A stretch of DNA of 37,484 bases. It comes from a virus. The stretch covers positions 1-37,484 of the IMG/VR virus record IMGVR_UViG_3300045988_013715. One strand, given 5' to 3'. The notes under the pieces were generated by a model. That model saw nothing but the letters and a program-made list of their open reading frames with translations. It did not search any database and was not told the DNA's origin. Shown one piece after another: positions 3,716-28,787 of the stretch. Each line of letters starts with the position of its first letter. The first letter of the stretch is position 1. The translations under genes and the position numbers were made by a program.

Positions 3716-3772
3716 ACCATGCTACGGCAAATGCCATCGCTGTGTGTGGCGGTGGAATGGGGGGTGTTCGGA

Positions 3773-4666
3773 ATGGCAATGACGGATTTGGAGCAGACCG
3801 CAATGGAGCGTCTACGTCTTGCATCGCAAATGTCAATAAAACTGCACAAGAAGCCGTTGCTTTTGACAGACAGCGGCGGCAAAGATAGCGCAGTAATCTG
3901 CAAGCTTGCCGAAAATGCCGGAATCCCGTTTGAAATATGCCACTCCCATACGACTGCGGACGCGCCAGAAACAGTATATCACGTGCGAAAACGCGCCAAA
4001 GAGTACGAAGAAAAAGGCATCAAGTACACGATAATTCTTCCGACATATCAGGGGAAACGCACTTCGATGTGGGACTTGATACCGAAGAAACTCATTCCGC
4101 CGACGCGAATTGCACGATATTGCTGCGCGGTATTGAAAGAAACAGCAGGCAAAGACCGATTCGTCGTCACAGGTGTCCGGTGGGCAGAATCTACCAAAAG
4201 AGCAACAACCAGTGGGGCGCTGGAAGTGCAAAATTCTGACCGCAAGAAAAAACTAATCCTAAACAATGACAACGAGGAAGACCGACAGCTTTTTGAAAAT
4301 TGCCAGATGAAAGGCAAGCGTGTCTGCAATCCCATCATCGACTGGACGGATCGTGACGTGTGGGATTACCTTACCGATCAAAAGGTCGAAGTGAACCCGT
4401 TGTACAACGAGGGCTTCTGCCGCGTTGGTTGCGTAGGATGCCCAGTGGCTAGGAAAAATCGTTACGCCGAATTTGCTCGATATCCTGCATATCAAAGGAA
4501 TTACATACGAGCTTTCGAGCGAATGCTCGAAGCGCGAAAAGCCAGCGGGAAGGCTAACGATATGCGCTGGGGAACAGGAGAAGACGTGTTCCACTGGTGG
4601 ATGGAGGACGGCGTTCTTCCTGGACAAGCAAACATTTGGGAGGATTATGACAATGCGCTTGATTGA
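3773..4666 (+). CDS. PAPS reductase/PP-loop ATPase family protein (IbrA/DndC-like)
   Basis: PP-loop motif LLLTDSGGKDSAV, RIARYCC, NPIIDWTDRDVWDYL, and a C-terminal CRVGCVGCP cluster. Start chosen at MAMTDLEQ. Confidence 0.8.
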   Translation: MAMTDLEQTAMERLRLASQMSIKLHKKPLLLTDSGGKDSAVICKLAENAGIPFEICHSHTTADAPETVYHVRKRAKEYEEKGIKYTIILPTYQGKRTSMWDLIPKKLIPPTRIARYCCAVLKETAGKDRFVVTGVRWAESTKRATTSGALEVQNSDRKKKLILNNDNEEDRQLFENCQMKGKRVCNPIIDWTDRDVWDYLTDQKVEVNPLYNEGFCRVGCVGCPVARKNRYAEFARYPAYQRNYIRAFERMLEARKASGKANDMRWGTGEDVFHWWMEDGVLPGQANIWEDYDNALD

Positions 4667-4892: not shown

Positions 4893-5175
4893 CGCAGAAA
4901 GCCCGCAGAACGGAATATACGTTTCCGATCTCGTAATCGAGGAAATGAAAAAAATTCCGACAGTCGATATTGACCGCCCCACCCGCAGCCAGTTTAAGCG
5001 CATGGCGGTGCAGCTGGGGTATGAAAAGGTTGTGCATTGCAAGGACTGCAAACACCGAGACCCGGAAGACGAGCGGTGTGATTGTGGATGCTGGCACACA
5101 CCGTTCACAACAAACGATAATGATTTTTGTAGTTACGGAGAAAGGAAGAACAATGGCAGCGAAGATCGTGCGTGA
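4879..5175 (+). CDS. Hypothetical protein, MRLIDA N-terminus + CKDCKH...FCSYGERK module (paralogue 2)
   Basis: ATG 8 nt after GGAGG. The 17-nt atgcgcttgattgacgc is shared with 4653. Confidence 0.6.
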   Translation: MRLIDAESPQNGIYVSDLVIEEMKKIPTVDIDRPTRSQFKRMAVQLGYEKVVHCKDCKHRDPEDERCDCGCWHTPFTTNDNDFCSYGERKNNGSEDRA

Positions 5176-5434
5176 CAACTGCAAGGACTGCGCTTCCAGC
5201 TGCGAGCACGCCGGAAAAGACCGGGAGTTTGTTTGCGTAAAAGGCGCCTCCTGCAAAACCGTAAAGCCAAAGCTGGAGATGGTCGCTGTTGTGCGGTGCA
5301 AAGACTGCAAGCACAAAGACACATGGCAAGAATCAAAAATACGTGATTGGTTCTGGTGTGGCGTAAGTGGATTGCAGGTCGTTGAAGATATGGACTTTTG
5401 CAGCTACGGAGAAAGGAGAACCGATGAGCAGTAA
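5153..5434 (+). CDS. Cys-rich hypothetical protein with CKDCKH...FCSYGERR module (paralogue 3)
   Basis: The C-terminal half parallels that of 4879..5175. Confidence 0.55.
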   Translation: MAAKIVRDNCKDCASSCEHAGKDREFVCVKGASCKTVKPKLEMVAVVRCKDCKHKDTWQESKIRDWFWCGVSGLQVVEDMDFCSYGERRTDEQ

Positions 5435-5654
5435 ATCAAAACGCAAGCCGAAATACGTATCCATGCACAAGGCCGTGTCCATCGCCATGACGATCTTCGT
5501 CTGGGCGTGGATGTCCTGCTTCAATCCTACGCAGGAGGACGTGAACCGCATGTCCGACGAGGTGCGCAACATCCGCGAGAGCGTGAACAGCAAGAACCTC
5601 AACATCTGGGAAGTCAGAGACGCCATAAAGGACGAGTTCGGGTGGGAAACATGA
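5424..5654 (+). CDS. Hypothetical protein with one predicted TM helix
   Basis: AAGGAGA RBS. MSSKSKRKPKYV, then the hydrophobic stretch AVSIAMTIFVWAWMSCF. Confidence 0.55.
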   Translation: MSSKSKRKPKYVSMHKAVSIAMTIFVWAWMSCFNPTQEDVNRMSDEVRNIRESVNSKNLNIWEVRDAIKDEFGWET

Positions 5655-6399: not shown

Positions 6400-6428
6400 G
6401 TGACATTCCGGAAAACCCGTGATATAAT
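6400..6428 (+). promoter_or_regulatory. Strong sigma-A-type promoter (GTGACA - 17 nt - TGaTATAAT)
   Basis: -35 at 6400..6405, a consensus TATAAT -10 at 6423..6428 with an extended TG at 6420..6421, and an exact 17-nt spacer. Confidence 0.6.
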
Positions 6429-6438
6429 GTTAATAAGC

Positions 6439-6495
6439 AAAGCCACGCAGAGACGCCGGACGATCACCGAGCGCCAAAGCGTGGCTTTTTATTTT
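6439..6495 (+). terminator. Intrinsic terminator-like hairpin directly downstream of the promoter
   Basis: Perfect 10-bp stem aaagccacgc (6439..6448) / gcgtggcttt (6479..6488) with a 30-nt loop, followed by TTTTTATTTT. Confidence 0.5.
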
Positions 6496-6546
6496 GGGCG
6501 AAGCCGAAAGGCGGGAAAGCCGTACGCAGCGGAGGGGGCGGCGGAG

Positions 6547-7671
6547 ATGGAGAAGATTATGGACGTTAAGAATATTCCAATCAAGGAAATCGTGCCGTAT
6601 GCGCGAAACGCGAAGAAGCACGATAAACGGCAGATCGACAACGTGGCGGAGAGCATCCGGCAATACGGATTTGTCCAGCCTGTAGTAATCGACCGCGACG
6701 GCGTGATCGTCATCGGGCATTGCCGCGTTCTGGCGGCGAAGAAGTTGGGAATGGAAGCCGTTCCGTGCGTCTGTGTAGACGATCTAACGCCGGAACAGGT
6801 CAACGCCCTGCGCCTCGTTGACAATAAGACCAACGAGAGCGATTGGGACATGGATCTTCTGTCGATGGAGCTGCCGGAGATCGACCTGTCCGCGTTTGAT
6901 TTTGACTGGGGATTGCCAGAAATCACAGAAGAAGTTATTGAGGACGAAGCACCCGAAGTTGACGAGGATGCAGAGCCGATTACAAAGCTGGGCGATATTT
7001 GGAAGTTGGGAAGACATAGGCTGATGTGCGGGGATAGCACCGATAAAGAGACGGTGCAAGCATTGATAGACGGTGCAAGCATTGATATGGTTTTTACAGA
7101 CCCTCCGTACAATGTTGCATTTAATGGAAGAAGTGGAAAGTTTGATGTTATCGAAAATGACGATTTGGCAGATGATGACTTTGAAAACTTTATTTCTGCT
7201 GTTTGTGATGTAATTAAGTTTATTGCACCGAAGCACTATTATGTGTGGTGCAACTGGAAGTTCTATGCAACACTTCAAACAAAGTTAGATTTTAAGTCTT
7301 GTATTGTTTGGGCAAAGAATGTGTTTGGGCTTGGGAAGGGATACAGACATCAACACGAATTTTGCTTATTTAATGGCGAGATTGACGATAGCGTTAAAAA
7401 CGAGAGCGATTTGTGGGAAATTGCGAAGGACACAAACTATGTGCATCCAACACAAAAACCCGTTGCACTTATTGGCAGGGCGCTGAAAAACCATAAGGGA
7501 GTAAAAACCGTGCTTGACTTGTTTGGTGGTAGTGGATCTTCTTTGATAGGTTGCGAACAGTTAGACCGCACTTGCTATATGATGGAACTCGACCCGAAGT
7601 ATTGCGATGTCATTATCAAACGATGGGAAAAATTCACTGGCGAAAAGGCGGTGCTTTTGAGTGACGATTGA
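6547..7671 (+). CDS. ParB-like nuclease domain fused to a DNA methyltransferase (N6A/N4C, DPPY type)
   Basis: N-terminus: IPIKEIVPYARNAKKHDKRQIDNVAESIRQYGFVQPVVID...GHCRVLAAKKLG (ParB/Srx fold). C-terminus: RLMCGDS, FTDPPYN, HPTQKPVAL, DLFGGSGSS. ATG after GGAGGGGG. Confidence 0.85.
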   Translation: MEKIMDVKNIPIKEIVPYARNAKKHDKRQIDNVAESIRQYGFVQPVVIDRDGVIVIGHCRVLAAKKLGMEAVPCVCVDDLTPEQVNALRLVDNKTNESDWDMDLLSMELPEIDLSAFDFDWGLPEITEEVIEDEAPEVDEDAEPITKLGDIWKLGRHRLMCGDSTDKETVQALIDGASIDMVFTDPPYNVAFNGRSGKFDVIENDDLADDDFENFISAVCDVIKFIAPKHYYVWCNWKFYATLQTKLDFKSCIVWAKNVFGLGKGYRHQHEFCLFNGEIDDSVKNESDLWEIAKDTNYVHPTQKPVALIGRALKNHKGVKTVLDLFGGSGSSLIGCEQLDRTCYMMELDPKYCDVIIKRWEKFTGEKAVLLSDD

Positions 7672-7766
7672 AGAAGCGAAAGCAATCATAGCGAAAACGA
7701 ACAGCCCGTATCTAAAACGGGACATGCAGAAATTCATTCGGCGCCAGCGAAGAAAGGGTGGCGATT

Positions 7767-21809: not shown

Positions 21810-22316
21810 ATGGCATGGTCACAGACAGCGCCGGAGCTTCCAAGCGGCAGCGCTTGGGAGCAGGAAAAGAGCATTTCGGGATGGTCAAACCACTGGAACT
21901 TTACCGGAAAGCTCTATATCGCCCGTTTGAATGGCAGGCAGTTTGCTGTTAAAGCAGTGCTTACGAGCGCAAACGGCAGCTACGGCACGTATTACCCGCC
22001 GAGCAAATGGAAACTCCGGTGCGATATCGGAGACGTGACCGGAACAGAGGATACGTCCTTCGACGTCTCCAAGGGGACGACCACATTCTACTTTATCGGC
22101 GAAGCCGGAGAGGGCGTAAATATCACCGTCAAGGTCGGCGGCGTAGACGCCGCGGTCGCTGTCCAAACCGCGACCTTTACCGCGCCGGCGTTGTTCGGCG
22201 CTACTGTTTACGTGAAAATTGGCGGCGGATGGAAGCCCGCGCAAGTCAAGGTCAAGATCGGCGGCGTCTGGAAGGACGCCGTGGCAAAAATCAAGGTCGG
22301 AGGGACATGGAAATGA
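21810..22316 (+). CDS. Tail-fibre-associated protein with C-terminal KIGGxWK repeats
   Basis: VKIGGGWKPAQVKVKIGGVWKDAVAKIKVGGTWK at the C-terminus. Confidence 0.55.
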   Translation: MAWSQTAPELPSGSAWEQEKSISGWSNHWNFTGKLYIARLNGRQFAVKAVLTSANGSYGTYYPPSKWKLRCDIGDVTGTEDTSFDVSKGTTTFYFIGEAGEGVNITVKVGGVDAAVAVQTATFTAPALFGATVYVKIGGGWKPAQVKVKIGGVWKDAVAKIKVGGTWK

Positions 22317-23065
22317 ACGGTATTGACGTTTCCGAGCATCAGGGCGATTTCGATTTCACGCCGTACAAGGATGGCTTTGTCATCATCCGCGGGGGCTACG
22401 GCGTACGAACCGTTGACCTGTGGGCAGAACGCAACATTGCCAAATGCGACGCGCTGGGCATTCCGTGGGGCGTCTACTGGTACAGCTATGCGCTGAATGT
22501 GCAGACGGCTAAATTGGAGGCGGAGCGGTGTCTGCGCTTCCTCAATGGCCGGAAGCCCCGTCTCGGCGTGTGGTTCGACATGGAGGATGCCGACGGGTAC
22601 AAGGCAAAGAACGGCTTCCCGGAGAATGAGACGATCACCGCCATGTGCAAGGTGTTCTGCGCGGCTATGGAAGATGCGGGGAACAGAACCGGCGTGTACG
22701 CCAGCCTGAGCTGGTTTGATACGCACATCGGCGAGACAGGGTACGACCGCTGGATCGCCGCGTGGGGCGCGAACGACGGCGTGCATTATCCCGACCTTTC
22801 CGGAAAATGCGTCATGCAGCAGTACCGGGGCAGCCCGCTGGATCTGGATATTTTGTATGTGCCGCTTTCGCATTTTGACGATGGCGCGGCGGGCGGAGCA
22901 GAGCCCCGCCCCTACGAAAAGGACGGGGAATGCGTAAGCGTCTCGGCGATGGCGCAGGAGGTGCTCGACGGAAAGTGGGGCAACGGCGAGGAGCGAAAGC
23001 AGAAGCTCGGCGCGTGGTTTTACGATCTCGTGCAGGGCGAAGTAAACAGAATCATGGGGGCTTGA
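22313..23065 (+). CDS. Endolysin: GH25 muramidase + CW_7 (Cpl-7-type) cell-wall-binding repeat
   Basis: MNGIDVSEHQGDFDF...IIRGGYG...GVYWYSY (GH25), and a C-terminal VLDGKWGNGEERKQKLGAWFYDLVQGEVNRI (CW_7 motif). The upstream part of the track ORF is read-through. Confidence 0.85.
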   Translation: MNGIDVSEHQGDFDFTPYKDGFVIIRGGYGVRTVDLWAERNIAKCDALGIPWGVYWYSYALNVQTAKLEAERCLRFLNGRKPRLGVWFDMEDADGYKAKNGFPENETITAMCKVFCAAMEDAGNRTGVYASLSWFDTHIGETGYDRWIAAWGANDGVHYPDLSGKCVMQQYRGSPLDLDILYVPLSHFDDGAAGGAEPRPYEKDGECVSVSAMAQEVLDGKWGNGEERKQKLGAWFYDLVQGEVNRIMGA

Positions 23066-23356: not shown

Positions 23357-23677
23357 ATGAACGAGATCATCACTACCTACGGCATGGAAATCATCAAGTA
23401 CATCATCCTCGCCATCTGCGGCATTGCCGCGTCCTACGCCGCGAAGCTGTACGAAAAGTACGTCAACACCGATACCAAGCGCAAGGTAGCGGCAACTACC
23501 GTTGCGTACATTGAACAGGTGTATAAGGATATCCACGGCGACGAGAAACTGTCCCGCGCCATGGCTGTCGCTGCCTCCATGCTCGAACAGAAGGGCATCA
23601 AAACCACGGAGGACGAGCTTAAGGTGCTTCTCGAAGCCGCCGTTAAGGAAATGAACGATAAGTTCAAAGCCGCCTGA
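23357..23677 (+). CDS. Holin, LL-H family-like
   Basis: N-terminal TM helix IIKYIILAICGIAASYAA, then VAYIEQVYKDIHGDEKL...LLEAAVKEMN, typical of LL-H type holins. Confidence 0.7.
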   Translation: MNEIITTYGMEIIKYIILAICGIAASYAAKLYEKYVNTDTKRKVAATTVAYIEQVYKDIHGDEKLSRAMAVAASMLEQKGIKTTEDELKVLLEAAVKEMNDKFKAA

Positions 23678-23814: not shown

Positions 23815-24078
23815 ATGACGACAGAGAGCCTCCTACGGAGTTTAACAACGCCGGGGACAAAGATTAAGCTGCAATTCCCGCGCGAGCTACGCGAACAGTT
23901 TGAGCGGGACTGCGGCTTTACCGACGAAGAATTAAAAATCTTCCGCCTGCGGGCAAAGGGCATGAGCGTTTTGCAAATCTCCTTTGCTATGCAGACGGAC
24001 ACGGAACTGTACGGCACAGAGAAAGTCGAGCGCCGTATACGGGCGATCAAGGACAAGATCGCCGCTGCAATCGAATGA
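23815..24078 (+). CDS. Small sigma region-4/LuxR-type HTH regulator
   Basis: FTDEELKIFRLRAKGMSVLQISFAMQ...EKVERRIRAIKDKI. Confidence 0.6.
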   Translation: MTTESLLRSLTTPGTKIKLQFPRELREQFERDCGFTDEELKIFRLRAKGMSVLQISFAMQTDTELYGTEKVERRIRAIKDKIAAAIE

Positions 24079-24097
24079 TGGATTATTGATGGATTAT
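24076..24097 (+). repeat. Perfect 11-nt direct repeat TGATGGATTAT x2 overlapping the stop codon
   Basis: tgatggattat tgatggattat tga, read directly from the sequence. Confidence 0.9.
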
Positions 24098-24098
24098 T

Positions 24099-24131
24099 GA
24101 GGGCTAACCGATGGGTTAGCCCTCTTTTTTT
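24099..24131 (+). terminator. Strong rho-independent terminator (end of late/lysis transcription)
   Basis: Perfect 11-bp stem gagggctaacc / ggttagccctc, 4-nt loop, T7 run. Confidence 0.85.
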
Positions 24132-24163: not shown

Positions 24164-24532
24164 ATGAAATATTTCAACCCGAATCCGGCAGGCAAGGCCG
24201 TGGGCGATTGCGTGATCCGCGCGATTGCTAAGGCGACCGGCGACAGCTGGGGCAAGGTGTATATGGACTTGGCGGCGACTGGACACGAGCTGTCCGATAT
24301 GCCGTCATCTAATGCGGTCTGGGGCGCGTATCTCCGCCGTCGTGGATTTGCGCGCTCCGCTCTCCCGGATTACGACGGCTATACCGTCCGGCAGTTTGCC
24401 GCCGAACACCCCCGAGGCGCATACATTCTCGCCTTGAGCGGCCACGTCGTGGCGGTCGTGGACGGAGAGTATTTTGACGCCTGGGATTCCGGCAACGAAA
24501 CACCAATCTACGTTTGGGAGGAAAAACGATGA
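24164..24532 (+). CDS. Hypothetical protein with a papain-like Cys-His-Asp arrangement
   Basis: ATG after GGGAGG. Contains GDCVIRAIAKA ... LSGHVVAVV ... FDAWDSG. Confidence 0.6.
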   Translation: MKYFNPNPAGKAVGDCVIRAIAKATGDSWGKVYMDLAATGHELSDMPSSNAVWGAYLRRRGFARSALPDYDGYTVRQFAAEHPRGAYILALSGHVVAVVDGEYFDAWDSGNETPIYVWEEKR

Positions 24533-24915
24533 ACTATCCGCCGTATTACCAGCCGAGCTACCAACAGCCATACGCCCCGCCGATGATGGATCAGCTCGCG
24601 CAGCTCCGTGCGCAGCAGCCCGCCCCGAACCCGATGATCTGGGTGCAGGGCGAAGCCGCCGCCAAGTCCTACCTTGTCGCGGCTGGGAACACCGTCCCGC
24701 TGTGGGACAGTGAGAACATGTGCATCTATGTCAAGTCCGTTGACGCTTCGGGCGTTCCATCCATGCGCATCCTCGACTACACCGAGCGAGCCAAAGCCGC
24801 GCCGACACAGACACCAACACCGGAGTATGTCACCCGCGCGGAATTTGAAGCGTTCGCGGCGCAGTTCGCGCCGAAGAAAACCGCAAAGAAAGCAGAGGTG
24901 CCCGAAAATGAGTAA
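24529..24915 (+). CDS. Hypothetical protein with a Tyr/Pro/Gln-rich N-terminus
   Basis: MNYPPYYQPSYQQPYAPP, then MIWVQGEAAAKSYLVAAGNTVPLWDSENMCIYVKSVDASGVP. ATGA coupling. Confidence 0.6.
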   Translation: MNYPPYYQPSYQQPYAPPMMDQLAQLRAQQPAPNPMIWVQGEAAAKSYLVAAGNTVPLWDSENMCIYVKSVDASGVPSMRILDYTERAKAAPTQTPTPEYVTRAEFEAFAAQFAPKKTAKKAEVPENE

Positions 24916-25114
24916 CCCCCTGTTTCAGGCGCTCGGCGGCGGGCAGAACAACCAGTTCGCCCAGCTTGTCCAGCAGTTCCAGCAATTCCGAAACACCTTT
25001 CGCGGCGATCCGCAGCAGGAGGTGCAGAAGCTGTTGCAAAGCGGCAAAATCTCGCAGCAGCAGCTAAACCAATTGCAAAGCGCCGCGCAGCAATTCCAGG
25101 CGCTCTTACGTTGA
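24908..25114 (+). CDS. Small Gln-rich helical hypothetical protein
   Basis: QFAQLVQQFQQFRNTFRGDPQQEVQKLLQSGKISQQQLNQLQSAAQQFQ. Confidence 0.55.
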   Translation: MSNPLFQALGGGQNNQFAQLVQQFQQFRNTFRGDPQQEVQKLLQSGKISQQQLNQLQSAAQQFQALLR

Positions 25115-25161
25115 ATTTATCCGGCCGGATAAAAAATATTTTTTGAAAGGAAAATTGAACA

Positions 25162-25866
25162 ATGTCTCTTACCGACGGTGGTATCCAGCCCACCATGCCC
25201 GTAACTCCTACCGGCGTGAATAACGGCGGCTGGGGCGGCTTCGGCGGCGACGGATGGTGGATCATCCTCTTCTTCATTGTCCTCTTCGGCTGGGGCGGCA
25301 ACGGCTTCGGCGGTAGTCGTGGCGGTGTGACCGATGGTTACATCCTCGCCTCCGACTTTGCCAACATCGAGCGCAAGCTCGACGGCGTGAACAACGGCCT
25401 CTGCGATGGTTTCTTCGCGCAGGCGCAGCTCATCAACGGCGTGCAGCAGAACCTGAGCAACGGCTTTATGTCCGCCGAACTCTCCCGCGCGAACCAGCAG
25501 TCTGCCCTCATGGCGCAGCTCTTCCAGATGCAGATGCAGTCGCAGGAGTGCTGCTGCGAGAATCGCGCCGCCGTTGCGCAGGTGCGCTATGACATGGCAA
25601 CGCAGGGCTGCGAAACCCGCAACACCGTGCAGAACGCCGCGCGCGACATCATCGACAACGCCAACGGAAACAGCAAGGCCATCCTCGACTTCCTCGTGCA
25701 GAGCAAGATGCGCGATCTCGAAAGCGAGAACCAGTCCCTCAAGCTCGCGGCCTCCCAGGCGGCGCAGAACAACTACCTCGTCTCTGCCCTCCGTCCGTCG
25801 CCCATCCCGGCGTATCAGGTCGCAAATCCATATTGCTGCAGCTACGGCTGCGGTTGTAGCGCCTAA
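25162..25866 (+). CDS. Membrane protein with a Gly/Trp-rich N-terminus, a CCCENR motif and a Cys-rich C-terminus
   Basis: GGWGGFGGDGWWIILFFIVLFGWGGNGFGG, QECCCENRAAVAQVRYDMATQGCETR, and a C-terminal NPYCCSYGCGCSA. Confidence 0.65.
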   Translation: MSLTDGGIQPTMPVTPTGVNNGGWGGFGGDGWWIILFFIVLFGWGGNGFGGSRGGVTDGYILASDFANIERKLDGVNNGLCDGFFAQAQLINGVQQNLSNGFMSAELSRANQQSALMAQLFQMQMQSQECCCENRAAVAQVRYDMATQGCETRNTVQNAARDIIDNANGNSKAILDFLVQSKMRDLESENQSLKLAASQAAQNNYLVSALRPSPIPAYQVANPYCCSYGCGCSA

Positions 25867-25928
25867 ACTTAATACCGAGAGCTTGCCCCCAGCGGCATGG
25901 TCGGCATAATGCCGACGCTTAACACACG

Positions 25929-25960
25929 GCGGCGGGGCATTATACCCCGCCGCTCTTTTT
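25929..25960 (+). terminator. Intrinsic terminator/attenuator inside the accessory island
   Basis: 9-bp GC stem gcggcgggg / ccccgccgc, 7-nt loop, then tcttttt. Confidence 0.6.
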
Positions 25961-25977
25961 GAAAGGAGAAAACCACA

Positions 25978-26400
25978 ATGGCTGAATTTATCAACGCCTC
26001 GACGTCGCTTGTCGCCGCCGGGCAGAACGTCCCCCTCACCGAAACAGCAGTTGCCGGGAATTGCGGTATCGTCCACCGCGAGGGCGCGGGCATCGTCACC
26101 CTCCGAGGCCTGACGAATCAGTGCCGCGCTCGGTACAAAGTGTCCTTCGGCGCAAACATCGCCATCCCCACCGGCGGAACGGTCGAAGCAATTTCCCTTG
26201 CCCTCGCCGTCAACGGCGAGCCGCTTGTTAGCGCCACCGCCATCGTTACCCCCGCCGCCGTCGGCGATTACGGAAACGTGTTTGTTTCCGCAAACGTCGA
26301 TGTTCCCCGCGGCTGCTGCCTGACTGTCGCGGCGGAGAACATCAGCGGACAGGCCATCAACGTTGCCAACGCCAACATGATCGTTGAGCGCGTGGCGTGA
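25978..26400 (+). CDS. All-beta hypothetical protein, BclA-C-terminal/C1q-like by pattern
   Basis: AAAGGAGAAAA RBS. About 140 aa of alternating hydrophobic beta pattern (IVTLRGL...YKVSFGANIAI...ISLALAVNGEPL...VFVSANVDV...LTVAAENIS...ANMIVERV). Confidence 0.55.
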   Translation: MAEFINASTSLVAAGQNVPLTETAVAGNCGIVHREGAGIVTLRGLTNQCRARYKVSFGANIAIPTGGTVEAISLALAVNGEPLVSATAIVTPAAVGDYGNVFVSANVDVPRGCCLTVAAENISGQAINVANANMIVERVA

Positions 26401-26413
26401 AAGGAGAAAAACC

Positions 26414-26815
26414 ATGAGTGAATATGCAATGAAGTCTATCCGCGAAAAGCTCTGCCGCGAGCTGGACGAAGTGGCCCGTAAGCCCGACCTCGGCGCTGGC
26501 GATCTCGATATCCTCCACAAAATCACCGACACCGTAAAGAACATCGACAAAATCGAAATGCTCGAAGACGGGGACTATTCCCGCGCCGGTGAGTTGGAGG
26601 CGGATATGCGCGGAACCTACGGTCGCGGCAGCAGCTACGCCCGCCGCGGTACGCACTACGTCCGCGGCCACTACAGCCGAGACGGCGAGGGCGACCGCTA
26701 CAGCGAACGGTACAGCCGCGACGGTATGCGCGAGCATATCGAGGGCATGATGCGCGACGCGCAGGACGACCGTACCCGCGAGGCGCTGCGACGCTGCCTC
26801 GACGATCTCGGCTGA
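26414..26815 (+). CDS. Hypothetical protein with Tyr/Arg/Ser/Gly repeats
   Basis: AAGGAG RBS. IDKIEMLEDGDYS, then HYVRGHYSRDGEGDRYSERYSRDG. Confidence 0.6.
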   Translation: MSEYAMKSIREKLCRELDEVARKPDLGAGDLDILHKITDTVKNIDKIEMLEDGDYSRAGELEADMRGTYGRGSSYARRGTHYVRGHYSRDGEGDRYSERYSRDGMREHIEGMMRDAQDDRTREALRRCLDDLG

Positions 26816-26816
26816 C

Positions 26817-27140
26817 ATGCTGGACGCACTCGAGATTCGCAAGGAGATAGCGAGACTCGAGTATGAGGAGTCGAGCTATCCCAATTATGCCAAGTTAGCC
26901 ACGCTCTACACCATCCGCGCCGAAATGAACAAGGCAAACGAGCCGCAGAGCGCCGCGCCGCGAGGGCAGTCCATCCCGGCCTATTCCGGCGCGGCCTACG
27001 GAAACAGCGAATTTCTCCGCACCATCTCGGATAAAGAGCCGCGAGACGCATGGCGGGTGATGGATGAGCTGATGGAGAGCCTGAGCGTGATGCAGCCAAA
27101 GACCTACGCCGCGGTCATGAACAAACTAAACGATCTATAA
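26817..27140 (+). CDS. Hypothetical protein (last gene of the accessory island)
   Basis: Starts 1 nt after the upstream stop. No recognisable family. Confidence 0.55.
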   Translation: MLDALEIRKEIARLEYEESSYPNYAKLATLYTIRAEMNKANEPQSAAPRGQSIPAYSGAAYGNSEFLRTISDKEPRDAWRVMDELMESLSVMQPKTYAAVMNKLNDL

Positions 27141-27146
27141 GCAAGA

Positions 27147-27173
27147 AAACGCTGGGGATTAACCCCAGCGTTT
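27147..27173. terminator. Bidirectional terminator between convergent genes
   Basis: 11-bp stem aaacgctgggg / ccccagcgttt with a 5-nt loop and T-rich flanks on both strands. Overlaps the integrase stop codon. Confidence 0.7.
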
Positions 27174-28787
27174 CTTTCGCGGTATGCTGAATCTCAGCAG
27201 CCCGCCCGCGATGGAAAAGTTATGGAAATTCGTGGTACCGGTGAGGGGACACCCTGAATTTTCGTCCCCTCGGTCTATTGGTTGTAGGTCAATGTTTATT
27301 CCATCTTCGGAAAAGTCAAAATGTCCGTTAGGGTCTGCGTCCAGAAGCGTCCATACAACGATTTTGTCTTTGCCGACTTCCACGCGCATTACCAACGACA
27401 AAAGCGCGTTTACATCGTCTCCTGCGGCGTTTAACAACGTCCTAAGACGATCCTCTGGTATCTGCGTACCATCGGCGCTGTGTTTCAACGTTGTCATTTG
27501 CTGGTCAATTTCCGCAAGCTCTTCTTCAAGCTCCTGCATCTTCGTTTTCAATGTCTGGCTGTGCAGCCCCGCAAGAATCGCATTTGTTCCCGCTTCGAGC
27601 TGCCGGTTGATTTCCATCCTTCGGGCGAGAAGAATTTGCATCCGCTGTGTGGCGACGTTGATTATTTCGTTTTTTTCTTCTCGGATAATGCTGATAATGT
27701 TTTCTATGTTTCCCGGATTTCCCAGGATTTCGCGTATAGCATCAGCGACGATGTTTTCCAGCTCTCCTGCGCCGATCTGCGGATTATCACATTGCCCGGT
27801 TCGCTTTTTCCCGGAACATGCGTAGTAGTAATACGTCTTTTTCGAGCTAACGATCGTCATGGCGCTTTTGCATTCGCGGCAGAACACTTTCCCCTTGAGC
27901 GGGTATTCTCGTGCCTTCGGTGGCCTGCCAGCCTGCACACGTCGGTTATCTTCCATCTTCTTCTGCACCCTTTCCCACGTTTCACGGTCGATGATTGCCG
28001 GGACGGCGTTCTCCATCCGCATTGTTCTGACAGAAAAAGAATGCGAATTTCGCGTACCGTCCGGTCGGCGCTCGCTCCTGCCGTACACAATATTCCCGAT
28101 ATACTTCTCATTCTTCAACAGGTCATGCAGGCTGTTCGTTCCGAAGCATCCGCCGCGTTTTGTGCGCGTCCCGGAATCGTTCAGCCATTTTATTATTTCC
28201 CGATACGATTTCCCCGCGGCGTACTGCCGGAATATCTCCCGTACGGTTTCAGCCTCATCATCGTTGATGACAAGGCGCTCGTCCTCTACGTCGTACCCCA
28301 GCGGCGGCTTTCCGCCCGTGTGCTTGCCCTGCTCCGCCATGTAACGCATCTTTTCGATGACCTTCTGCCGCGTTTGTAGCACCCACATCTGATTCATCAG
28401 AGCCATGCTGCCCTCGGACAGAAACGTCATCGGGTCGCGCAGGTCGCCGCCGATGATCGGCTGCGTCACGGCCACGACGCGCACACCATAGCACGCCATC
28501 TGTTCGCGGAATTGAAACCACGCCGTCAGCTTGCGGAACATTCGAGACTGGTCGTAAATAACAACCGTGTCCGCCCCGCCCTCGGCGAGCTGCCGCATCA
28601 TGCGGGCATACTCCGGTCTTGTGTTCTTCATGCCGGATGTAGCCTCGTCAGCGAACACGTCCAGTACAGAAAGGTGCTCCCGTGCGCACCACTCGCGGCA
28701 CTTCTGCACCTGCACGTCGATGCTGTCCACCTCTTGATTGTCGGTTGAGAAGCGAGCAAGAATGTACGCTCCGTGTGTCAGTCTCAT
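27159..28787 (-). CDS. Large serine recombinase (phage integrase)
   Basis: N-terminal resolvase domain with YILARFSTDNQ (catalytic Ser), recombinase domain, a zinc-ribbon (CRECKS...CSGKKRTGQC) and a coiled coil. 542 aa. Confidence 0.9.
   Translation of the reverse strand: MRLTHGAYILARFSTDNQEVDSIDVQVQKCREWCAREHLSVLDVFADEATSGMKNTRPEYARMMRQLAEGGADTVVIYDQSRMFRKLTAWFQFREQMACYGVRVVAVTQPIIGGDLRDPMTFLSEGSMALMNQMWVLQTRQKVIEKMRYMAEQGKHTGGKPPLGYDVEDERLVINDDEAETVREIFRQYAAGKSYREIIKWLNDSGTRTKRGGCFGTNSLHDLLKNEKYIGNIVYGRSERRPDGTRNSHSFSVRTMRMENAVPAIIDRETWERVQKKMEDNRRVQAGRPPKAREYPLKGKVFCRECKSAMTIVSSKKTYYYYACSGKKRTGQCDNPQIGAGELENIVADAIREILGNPGNIENIISIIREEKNEIINVATQRMQILLARRMEINRQLEAGTNAILAGLHSQTLKTKMQELEEELAEIDQQMTTLKHSADGTQIPEDRLRTLLNAAGDDVNALLSLVMRVEVGKDKIVVWTLLDADPNGHFDFSEDGINIDLQPIDRGDENSGCPLTGTTNFHNFSIAGGLLRFSIPRKKRWG

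Follow-up and report, generated by a model that had tools for sequence, protein, structure and literature searches.

A widespread gut-phage protein with a highly conserved cysteine triplet and a coiled-coil rod of stepwise length

The 234-residue protein examined here, hereafter the target, is a very widespread uncharacterized gut-phage protein encoded in a multigene cassette that is conserved between the lysis genes and the integrase. Its body is a coiled-coil rod of stepwise length, because every difference in spacing between its conserved anchor motifs can be composed of steps of 7 and 11 residues; this quantized rod, set against a Gly-rich linker whose length varies freely, is a new observation. 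The window, by which we mean the whole 37,484-nt stretch of DNA that was analyzed, belongs to a temperate siphovirus that infects gut Clostridia. Our explanation, which is tentative and which we rate at somewhat less than an even chance, is that the target is a membrane-tethering, rod-shaped core subunit of a multiprotein accessory module in the siphoviruses of these hosts. No known kind can be assigned to the protein, and "new" here implies no demonstrated new mechanism. The features discussed below are collected in Table 1.

Table 1. Features of the target gene and the surrounding cassette, with positions in the window
Feature	Position	Strand	Description
Holin	23357..23677	+	Pfam Phage_holin_6_1, E=1.2e-17; lysis-side border of cassette
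g87	23815..24078	+	Small HTH ORF at cassette head; probably sigma-70 region-4-like
Hairpin between g87 and g129	24099..24131	+	Terminator-like; abuts g129 ribosome-binding site
g129	24164..24532	+	PHROG 3754 (no known function); soluble, Cys-rich; invariant Asp-Cys, His, Asp
g133	24529..24915	+	PHROG 21718 (no known function); Q/P/Y-rich N-terminus and small domain
gQ	24908..25114	+	PHROG 22984 (no known function); 68 aa, Q-rich; between g133 and target
Ribosome-binding site	25145..25151	+	GAAAGGA, 10 nt 5′ of target ATG; read from sequence
Target ORF	25162..25866	+	ATG start; 234 aa; PHROG 16490 member (no function annotated)
N-tail, residues 1–21	25162..25224	+	Acidic, no K/R, differs between clades; mean conservation 0.49
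Gly/Trp-rich segment, residues 22–51	25225..25314	+	Sole hydrophobic core W32–W44 (nt 25255–25293)
Gly linker and box YxLxSDFxxxERKxD..N, residues 52–78	25315..25395	+	Linker length free across family
Coiled-coil arm 1, residues 79–129	25396..25548	+	Begins GLCDGF with C81; AlphaFold helix 84–125
CCC triplet, C130–C132	25549..25557	+	Most conserved feature of family
Arm 2, residues 133–213	25558..25800	+	C150; motifs TRDIIDNxN, AILD, LAASQxAQNxYL; AlphaFold helix 146–209
Pro-rich RPxPxPAY..NPY and Cys tail, residues 211–234	25792..25863	+	C225, C226, C230, C232
Terminator/attenuator hairpin and T-run 3′ of target	25928..25960	+	Stem 25928–25954, then CTTTTT
g140	25978..26400	+	PHROG 20016 (no known function); soluble, probably beta-rich; conserved QC, GCC
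g143	26414..26815	+	Weak PHROG 28802 match; helical N-terminus, then Y/R/G/D-rich region
g107	26817..27140	+	Last gene of cassette
Hairpin between convergent cassette and integrase genes	27146..27174	.	Overlaps integrase ORF 3′ end
Large serine integrase	27159..28787	-	Pfam Resolvase, Recombinase, Zn_ribbon_recom; PHROG integrase E=3.7e-104; lysogeny-side border

The target gene and its family

The target ORF is a real gene under selection, far beyond what chance would give. Its GC3 is 0.83, against 0.84 for the major capsid gene, and its codon bias resembles that of the capsid gene; an overlapping antisense ORF of 477 aa has a noncoding GC pattern, and an ORF in another frame (25574–25909, 111 aa) lacks a hydrophobic leader. 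All of the motifs quoted in an earlier, sequence-only reading of this DNA are present in the translation, namely GGWGGFGGDGWWIILFFIVLFGWGGNGFGG at residues 22–51, QECCCENRAAVAQVRYDMATQGCETR at residues 128–153 and NPYCCSYGCGCSA at the C-terminal end (residues 222–234). Homologs fall into at least 7,947 clusters at 90% identity and 1,542 clusters at 50% identity, every one of which is named "hypothetical protein."

The PHROG 16490 profile, a family without functional annotation, matches residues 1–222 of the target (E=5.4e-37) and was hit by 56 of 56 diverse relatives (best E=4.4e-59). Neither Pfam nor NCBIfam, the latter including the YjcZ-like Gly-rich small sporulation membrane proteins, gave a match for the target or for those relatives; sequence and profile searches of the PDB returned no relative of the target, an Rfam search found no family, and the literature yielded no description of the cassette. 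That the earlier reading could assign the protein to no characterized family is thus borne out by the Pfam, NCBIfam, PHROG, PADLOC and PDB searches. All 20 phage-record matches are uncultured, and every genome match is a metagenome-assembled genome (MAG) or a metagenome bin. By host bin, 13 of 15 genome loci belong to Clostridia, Lachnospiraceae or Oscillospiraceae, with one of the other two binned to Phascolarctobacterium and one to Paludibacteraceae, and the binning of phage contigs into MAGs is uncertain.

Few unannotated gene sets are as common as this cassette among the temperate phages that infect gut Clostridia of humans and animals, hosts that dominate the gut. Its conservation at the junction of lysis and integrase genes means that it probably affects the behavior of lysogens or infected cells, and possible effects include exclusion of other phages, control of lysis, and changes in envelope or spore properties. 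The near-invariant CCC triplet, the 7/11-residue length steps and the obligate neighbor offer experimental handles on the target.

Rod, linker, and cysteines

The region between the anchor and the tail had been described as a long Asn/Gln-rich helical stretch; its helical nature holds, and the description is here refined to a coiled-coil rod with a 7/11-residue register. Arm 1 ranges from 11 to 84 residues across the family, and all 14 of the 14 distinct length differences lie on the 7/11 lattice. Taken modulo 11, these differences occupy classes 0, 4 and 8 only (chi-square p=3e-43), whereas those of the Gly linker, which served as a control, are uniform (p=0.21). Length differences in arm 2 are also quantized. 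Two AlphaFold2 runs, with alignments of 43 and 69 sequences, gave mean pLDDT values of 42.8 and 47.9, from which secondary structure alone is usable, and both models contain two long helices with the CCC loop between them. AlphaFold thus gave no confident tertiary or oligomer model of the target (pLDDT 43–48), and a Foldseek search of the PDB with the target model returned no match. We rejected an antiparallel, length-matched hairpin of the two arms since their lengths are uncorrelated (rho 0.17, p=0.19).

The nine cysteines that had been counted in the target are all present (residues 81, 130, 131, 132, 150, 225, 226, 230 and 232) and are laid out as a lone C81, the CCC triplet with C150 18 residues on, and a four-Cys tail. 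This number is unusual for the phage (P=3.5e-4 against a background of 0.92% Cys in nine other proteins). Among 56 diverse members, the three CCC positions are Cys in 93%, 93% and 98%, C81 in 79%, C150 in 82%, and tail residues C230 and C232 in 88–89%, and this conservation supports the functional role that had been suspected for the cysteines. In a set of 120 representatives, 111 carry CCC and the others retain one Cys at that place; the last 25 residues hold two to five Cys in most members and none in 11. Conservation of at least 90% is also found at S198, Q199 and Q202 in arm 2 and at P214, P216, A217 and P223 in the Pro-rich motif.

A thiazole/oxazole-modified or other Cys-rich RiPP precursor was considered and rejected: no YcaO- or radical SAM-type enzyme domain occurs in four neighbor contexts or in the window cassette, and the tail Cys are absent from those same 11 members. 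A double-glycine leader was likewise rejected. The N-terminal SLSDIAAVTG(G/N) occurs in some clades only and is absent from the window copy, so the motif is not conserved, and it shows no correlation with the presence of g129. Nor does the cassette offer a C39 peptidase with an ABC exporter, since g129 has no Pfam C39 match and the neighborhood has no ABC transporter.

Membrane anchor and topology

Hydropathy bears out the single hydrophobic helix flanked by Gly and Trp that had been noted at the N-terminus. The best 13-residue Kyte–Doolittle window spans residues 34–46 (score 2.43), and the only hydrophobic segment is residues 27–49, with no second segment or C-terminal transmembrane anchor in the target. 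Within the Gly/Trp segment, conservation reaches at least 90% at G28, W33, G43 and G48. Both AlphaFold models are most confident at the anchor, which in one of them is a helix at residues 32–42 (pLDDT 74).

The same reading had placed the cysteines on the outside of the membrane, a placement that the evidence does not support. The N-tail, which has a family mean of 0.56 K/R and none in the window copy, is acidic and shows no Sec-type signal, and by a crude test the conserved cassette partners have neither a signal peptide nor a transmembrane segment, a segment of that type occurring among the conserved cassette proteins in the target only. With no K/R in the N-tail and no signal peptide on any partner, the C-terminal domain is favored as cytoplasmic, and disulfides are therefore unlikely and metal or thiol ligation more plausible. 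Charge bias and crude signal-peptide tests thus favor a cytoplasmic rod whose thiols would bind metal or partners over disulfides outside the cell; charges are nearly absent on both flanks of the anchor, which makes the positive-inside rule weak for this protein.

The anatomy of the target is either shown or strongly indicated. After a short acidic N-tail, a ~13-residue helix bracketed by Trp and Gly anchors it in the cytoplasmic membrane. Beyond the flexible, free-length Gly-rich linker, a ~135-residue rod of two coiled-coil segments with CCC between them leads to the conserved Pro-rich motif, and Cys residues in a CxC-type arrangement close the protein. From these features we infer the mechanism, including its topology, scaffold and partner-binding steps. 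The target would insert in an N-out/C-in orientation, with the rod and all cysteines facing the cytoplasm. The target may oligomerize in the cytoplasm and serve as a membrane-bound scaffold, the thiols of C81, CCC, C150 and the tail ligating either metal or the Cys-bearing partners g129 and g140 (or the MACKN-type substitute of the latter), and the always-adjacent g133 and gQ proteins may bind the rod. A known phage protein of similar design is phi29 p16.7, in which an N-terminal membrane anchor is followed by a cytoplasmic coiled coil and which acts as a membrane-bound organizer for soluble partners. Unlike the target, p16.7 is made early, is ~130 aa long, binds DNA through its C-terminal domain and is devoid of Cys clusters; we detected no homology between the two, and the target gene lies at the lysis/integrase junction.

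An opposite orientation, N-in/C-out, would make the target an extracytoplasmic stalk whose rod spans the wall zone and whose Pro/Cys tail lies outside, joined by disulfides or metal, where it might cover a receptor or serve as surface decoration. Discrete steps in rod length over so wide a range would suit a spacer for an envelope layer; the window rod would measure ~20 nm, assuming 1.5 Å per residue for ~135 residues, the C-terminus is conserved and Pro-rich, and the gene is adjacent to those of holin and endolysin. We nevertheless consider this arrangement unlikely, if worth keeping in view, as there is no positive n-region ahead of the hydrophobic segment and partners without signal peptides could reach an external rod only after lysis. 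The hosts are also strict anaerobes, and in their reducing habitat one would not expect disulfides outside the cell.

The cassette and its possible role

Synteny shows that the target is no lone oddity and is instead the membrane component of a conserved multigene cassette. Upstream, g133 is present in 22 of 22 loci and, in a stricter run, in 94 of 101, the other 7 being explained. Directly after the target, a Cys-bearing protein of ~140 aa, of either the g140 or the MACKNxCxLC type, follows in 98 of 99 loci; these two types were rejected as homologs of one another (hhalign probability 0.3%). Among 102 loci, g129 is found in 88, g143 in 84 and g107 in 65. Three of the cassette proteins are Cys-rich. 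The invariant Cys, His and Asp of g129 recall a C39 or papain-like peptidase, an assignment that we dropped since g129 has no Pfam, NCBIfam or PDB match. A jelly roll of the BclA/C1q type, suggested for g140 by a similar C-terminus, received no support from phmmer and profile searches of the PDB or from Pfam, which returned nothing and do not disprove it.

At the head of the cassette, the window copy of g87 has no Pfam match; its positional equivalent in phage L002 matches Sigma70_r4 (E=3.9e-6), homologs occur in L007, L009 and L012, an analogous 86-aa ORF is found in L018, and in two lineages a sigma-region-4-type ORF and terminators flank the cassette. Downstream of the target stands a hairpin whose stem is formed by 10 pairs, of which 9 are G-C (ΔG -21.5 kcal/mol), which agrees with the terminator that had been assigned to this gene; a hairpin stands at this position in most clades, its position being conserved across them while the stem sequences differ. 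The ribosome-binding site and ATG of the next gene directly abut it, leaving no space for a promoter. We suggest that this hairpin would hold the target product in excess over its downstream partners and that the cassette would be driven by its own small sigma-region-4-type regulator.

In most loci the late/lysis operon precedes the cassette and shares its strand, and an integrase is within 4 kb in 51 of 65 loci; endolysin and integrase types have been exchanged around an unchanged cassette. A 58-kb phage that encodes a DNA polymerase of its own and lacks an annotated integrase carries the cassette too, and this occurrence, with the position after the late operon, fits a function in the lytic cycle as well as in the lysogenic one. 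For the membrane-tethered scaffold, our best guess is an envelope module expressed in the lysogen or late in infection. It would lie outside both the virion and the core lysis machinery and would have an envelope-associated accessory function, such as phage exclusion or defense or the control of late membrane events; this role is the least certain part of the explanation.

The proximity of the lysis genes raises the question of whether the target is instead a membrane-anchored coiled-coil partner or regulator of holin and endolysin, with a part in lysis timing or in the final stage of envelope disruption. In every variant-A locus, as in phage L002, which is apparently nontemperate, the cassette comes directly 3′ of the lysis genes and on their strand, and a hydrophobic, coil-like small ORF after the target in some variant-B loci could be read in the same sense. 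Its anatomy also recalls the i-spanin Rz of phage lambda, which has an anchor at the N-terminus, a hinge between its two coiled-coil segments, a gene beside holin and endolysin, and conserved cysteines that are needed for oligomer linkage. Unlike Rz, the target has a Cys-rich tail and a CCC triplet but no gene for an outer-membrane lipoprotein partner (the cassette has no o-spanin gene and no ORF with a signal-peptide-like N-terminus), its hosts are mostly monoderm Clostridia, and between it and the lysis genes stand a terminator and a regulator gene. The likely topology is opposite too: an anchor and a coiled-coil register are present in the target, and the N-in/C-out orientation that spanins require is not favored. 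Firmicutes phages encode lysis-associated proteins of the PBSX XhlA and BhlA/UviB types beside holin and endolysin, and these share with the target a membrane segment and a coiled coil; at ~70–90 aa, they are unlike it in lacking a ~135-residue rod and conserved Cys clusters. A holin of the Phage_holin, BhlA or XhlA type was itself rejected, there being no Pfam match, a length of 234 aa with a soluble domain of ~180 aa, and a separate Phage_holin_6_1 gene. Given that a canonical holin and endolysin are already encoded, that variant-B prophages carry the cassette at the integrase end, distant from the lysis genes, and that neither the target nor its relatives match a spanin or other lysis family in Pfam or PHROG, we regard a lysis accessory as decidedly unlikely.

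Position beside the integrase is also consistent with defense, as the prophage edge is a usual place for accessory and defense genes. The target would then be a membrane-damaging effector of abortive infection, expressed from the prophage and checked or triggered by the soluble cassette proteins. The regulator and terminators of the cassette agree with this, and a short Trp-flanked hydrophobic helix is marginal as a stable transmembrane segment. However, PADLOC 2.0 (2023 library) returned no significant match for the 8 cassette proteins tested, none carries an ATPase, nuclease or nucleotide-signaling domain, the capsid-like GC3 of the target speaks against recent import, and the 58-kb phage carries the cassette with no annotated integrase. 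We therefore give a defense effector little credence.

Equally improbable in our estimate is a cassette that builds a cross-linked protein layer or fiber on the membrane, by covalent bonds or metal, comparable to a spore coat or cornified envelope. In that case the target, anchored in the membrane, would nucleate the structure, and its rod would set the spacing; g133 (Q/P/Y-rich), gQ (Q-rich) and g143 (Y/R/G-rich) would serve as matrix substrates, with the Cys-rich proteins of the g140 or MACKN type as building blocks and g129, with its invariant Cys-His-Asp set, as the cross-linking or processing enzyme. Such a layer, if it exists, could harden lysogen cells or spores or compartmentalize late infection.

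We find it very improbable that the target is a virion protein whose hydrophobic Gly-rich peptide is buried in a particle oligomer and inserted into the host membrane at infection. Its codon usage is like that of structural genes, the hairpin 3′ of it hints at abundant product, and its Gly-rich hydrophobic peptide, with a long helix after it, is similar in composition to viral fusion peptides such as those of influenza HA2 and HEF2, which the family profile matched over this region (E=0.004–0.9). These matches were lost on removal of residues 1–56 (best HA2 E=5.1), and homology was rejected in favor of compositional likeness. Unlike HA2 and HEF2, the target has no C-terminal transmembrane anchor, its arm lengths are uncorrelated and the virus is unenveloped. 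None of the 102 loci has the gene within the head-tail module, and a "minor tail protein" PHROG match was weak and confined to 1 of 56 members (E=5.7e-4).

Variant-B loci carry diverged gQ equivalents of 75–90 aa, and in some of them a small ORF 3′ of the target encodes a hydrophobic segment and, after it, a coil-like region.

Target protein and family

The target, a 234-residue ORF, starts with ATG, has a GAAAGGA ribosome-binding site (RBS) 10 nt upstream, and at third codon positions has the GC content of the major capsid gene (0.83 and 0.84, respectively). A 477-residue antisense ORF over the target and its neighbor g140 shows a non-coding pattern (codon-position GC 0.72, 0.48 and 0.59) and was rejected as a GC-rich artefact. 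The sequence-only reading had described three motifs in the target, nine cysteines and a GC-rich terminator, and these observations are confirmed: the motifs occupy residues 22-51, 128-153 and 222-234, the cysteines are at 81, 130-132, 150, 225, 226, 230 and 232, and the terminator has 10 pairs, 9 of them G-C, followed by a T-run (dG -21.5 kcal/mol). Nine cysteines in 234 residues is unusual for this phage (background 0.92%, P = 3.5e-4).

The claim that the protein falls outside characterized families also held: neither the window copy nor any of 56 diverse relatives matched Pfam, NCBIfam or PADLOC. No solved structure is related to it in sequence, a weak profile similarity to influenza HEF2/HA2 turned out to reflect composition, and a literature search found no description of the target or its cassette. 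It belongs to PHROG 16490, a family without assigned function; homologs form at least 7,947 clusters at 90% identity and 1,542 at 50% identity, with proteins of roughly equal size and every one unnamed or "hypothetical protein," and in the phage record collection only 20 phages, all uncultured, encode the target. What emerges is a genuine phage module, abundant and uncharacterized.

Anatomy and topology of the target

Two AlphaFold runs gave low-confidence models (mean pLDDT 42.8 and 47.9); the better one had no Foldseek match. Common to both are helix 32-42, the best scored, helix 84-125, a loop at 126-145 that carries the CCC, helix 146-209 and a non-helical tail. We took anchor-to-anchor distances on unaligned sequences of the 50%-identity representatives. 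The GLCDGF-to-CCC distance is 11-84 residues, and its 14 distinct deviations from that in the window (-40, -25, -22, -18, -14, -11, -7, -3, +4, +11, +15, +22, +26 and +33) are without exception sums of 7s and 11s, occupying only classes 0, 4 and 8 modulo 11 (chi-square p = 3e-43, inflated by shared ancestry). The CCC-TRDIID and TRDIID-ASQxxQ distances likewise change in steps of 4, 7, 11, 18, 22 and 33, and the Gly-rich linker from the anchor to GLCDGF, an internal control, has lengths in every residue class (p = 0.21). Insertions and deletions in 7/11 register are a hallmark of coiled coils with heptad and hendecad periodicity; the target body is accordingly a rod whose length evolves by whole repeat steps. 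A simple antiparallel hairpin with matched arms is disfavored by the uncorrelated lengths of the two arms (rho 0.17, p = 0.19).

Among 56 diverse members, conservation is 79% for C81, 93% for C130 and C131, 98% for C132, 82% for C150 and 88-89% for C230 and C232, and members without the full CCC keep one cysteine there; G28, W33, G43, G48, S198, Q199, Q202, P214, P216, A217 and P223 also reach at least 90% conservation. There is good support for a coiled-coil rod that is oligomeric, tethered to the membrane and equipped with conserved thiol sites, forming the membrane component of a conserved multi-protein module.

The cysteines had been read as disulfide cross-linked or metal-binding on the outside of the membrane. 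Their conservation indicates that they matter, whereas the outside location is doubtful. The hydrophobic core is short (~13 residues, W32-W44), with Gly, Trp and Asn on its flanks; Lys and Arg are nearly absent on both sides (N-tail mean 0.56 K/R, 2.9 D/E), leaving no Sec-type signal peptide. Under the positive-inside rule, this composition favors N-out/C-in only weakly. The target is the sole conserved cassette protein with a membrane-type segment, and a crude hydropathy and charge test found no signal peptide in g129, g133, gQ, g140, g143 or g107, so that the cassette proteins, if they act jointly, would most simply do so in the cytoplasm. In the cytoplasm of strict anaerobes, Cys clusters are usually Zn or Fe-S ligands rather than disulfides. 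Taken together, the weak orientation preference, the partners without signal peptides and this background tilt us modestly toward a cytoplasmic rod. An external stalk would share the rod anatomy and agree with the original placement of the cysteines; against the missing Sec-type signal and partner signal peptides, we consider it unlikely.

The cassette and its regulation

The window's cassette runs g87 (a small HTH protein, 87 residues), hairpin, g129, g133, gQ (68 residues, Q-rich), target, hairpin, g140, g143, g107, hairpin and integrase. Each of 22 loci has a g133-family gene directly upstream of the target. In a 102-locus survey, a protein of ~130-140 residues follows within 900 bp in 98 of 99 loci, being g140 in 86 and a MACKNxCxLC-starting protein in 12. 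A serine or tyrosine integrase lies less than 4 kb away in 51 of 65 loci, and the upstream endolysin may be of CHAP, Amidase_2 or other type; the cassette thus moves as one block between flanks that are swapped. Dulem virus 33 has an endonuclease gene on the opposite strand, inserted between gQ and the target in a cassette that is otherwise intact. Many g129 relatives carry a CP(D/E/T)C motif; the protein averages 6.4 Cys in ~130 residues, and searches of Pfam, NCBIfam and PDB gave no relative. The N-terminus of g133 is Q/P/Y-rich, like a prion-like low-complexity domain, and g143 has a Tyr/Arg/Gly/Asp-rich stretch (GSSYARRGTHYVRGHYSRDG...); judged by composition, both look typical of cross-linked matrix or phase-separating proteins.

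In a second version, variant-B (L005, L009-L014, L017 and L002), g133, a small Q/M/N-rich protein and the target are retained; next come a MACKN-type protein, a g143 relative that is longer and Y/R/G-rich and, mostly, a small HExxH protein. The MACKNxCxLC family (CX3CX2C, ~130-140 residues, five invariant cysteines) replaces g140 directly after the target, and homology between the two was rejected (hhalign probability 0.3%); one slot is taken by either of two unrelated Cys-bearing proteins. The HExxH protein (~110 residues), with weak Pfam matches only (SprT-like, Peptidase_M78), comes last, in the place of g107. Variant-B prophages have their cassette next to a tyrosine integrase on the same strand, or at the prophage boundary with host genes, and the location on the circular phage map is the same, between the lysis and lysogeny modules. 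In L009 and L012, the cassette directly follows a g87-like HTH gene and a tyrosine integrase gene on its own strand, so transcription from the integrase side may extend into it in the prophage state. L002, a circular phage of 58 kb, encodes a DNA polymerase and a helicase of its own and has no annotated integrase; its late operon ends with the cassette.

The positional equivalent of g87 in L002 matches Pfam sigma-70 region 4 (Sigma70_r4, E = 3.9e-6); the window copy has no Pfam match. Both internal window hairpins are followed directly by an RBS and start codon, leaving no room for a promoter, and L018, from a widespread lineage, has the same layout. The g87 gene and its hairpin may serve the cassette as an attenuation or antitermination switch. 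In most clades, a strong hairpin lies 30-120 nt past the target stop; its position is conserved and its stem sequences differ, which suggests attenuation or 3′-end protection, with target product in excess over downstream partners.

Coordinates of features in the window and related loci
Feature	Record	Position	Strand	Remark
PAPS-reductase-like gene	window	3719-4666
ParB-like/methyltransferase gene	window	6400-7671
Low-GC stretch	window	7001-8000
Endolysin ORF	window	22007-23065
ORF overlapping endolysin	window	21810-22316
g87 + hairpin	window	23815-24131
Hairpin g87/g129	window	24099-24131	+	abuts RBS of next gene
g129	window	24164-24532	+	small, soluble; PHROG 3754; invariant Asp-Cys, His, Asp (papain-like spacing)
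g133	window	24529-24915
Antisense ORF	window	25117-26550	-	rejected
Target	window	25162-25866	+
Hairpin after target	window	25928-25960	+	next RBS and start immediately after
g143	window	26414-26815
Endonuclease gene	L001 (Dulem virus 33)	5046-5597	opposite
86-residue ORF	L018	6346-6606
Hairpins	L018	6580-6619, 6727-6748
HTH gene + integrase	L009; L012	3247-4672; 3330-4751
MACKNxCxLC protein	L009; L002	6958-7365; 6734-7153		also L005, L010-L014, L017, L098, L101, L102
HExxH protein	L009	8088-8438		equivalents in L007, L010, L011, L012, L017

Likely role and genomic setting

The window amounts to an almost complete genome of a temperate siphovirus, with replication genes (Erf-like, NinB-like, O-like, ParB-methyltransferase fusion), large terminase, portal, major head protein, tape measure, Dit and other tail proteins, endolysin and holin; the lysis genes lead into the target's cassette and then to a large serine integrase on the opposite strand. 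Nearly all related loci found in genomes come from gut Clostridia (Oscillospiraceae, Lachnospiraceae, "Clostridium sp. CAG:413"). We favor an accessory role associated with the envelope and controlled by the cassette's own regulator, such as phage exclusion or defense or control of late membrane events, because the cassette lies beside the integrase or attachment site, is bounded by terminators and is independent of lysin type. An abortive-infection effector would suit the same surroundings; known defense systems were tested and did not fit, and we consider this reading very unlikely. Co-orientation with the late operon and presence in a phage without annotated integrase leave room for a lytic-cycle role. 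We consider a lysis accessory quite unlikely and a virion penetration protein highly improbable.

Among known proteins, the lambda Rz i-spanin comes closest in anatomy, with its N-terminal anchor, two coiled-coil segments, functional cysteines and place in the lysis region. Unlike Rz, the target has no lipoprotein partner, mostly monoderm hosts, no sequence match and a likely reversed topology, and on these grounds a spanin was rejected. Holins, XhlA/BhlA, double-glycine peptides, RiPP precursors and YjcZ-like proteins were each tested and did not fit. The module's importance would be high if the cassette proves to build a covalently or metal-cross-linked protein layer on the membrane, nucleated by the target, or to embody a new exclusion mechanism.

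Elsewhere in the window, the endolysin ORF, as listed from an upstream ATG, overlaps the preceding ORF; because its PHROG match sets in only around residue 100, translation probably starts further inside. A PAPS-reductase-like gene in the early region belongs to PHROG 424, in the category "moron, auxiliary metabolic gene and host takeover." The fused ParB-like and DNA methyltransferase gene is followed by a low-GC stretch (0.43 vs ~0.56 elsewhere) just before the large terminase, which may be a packaging-site or small-terminase region.
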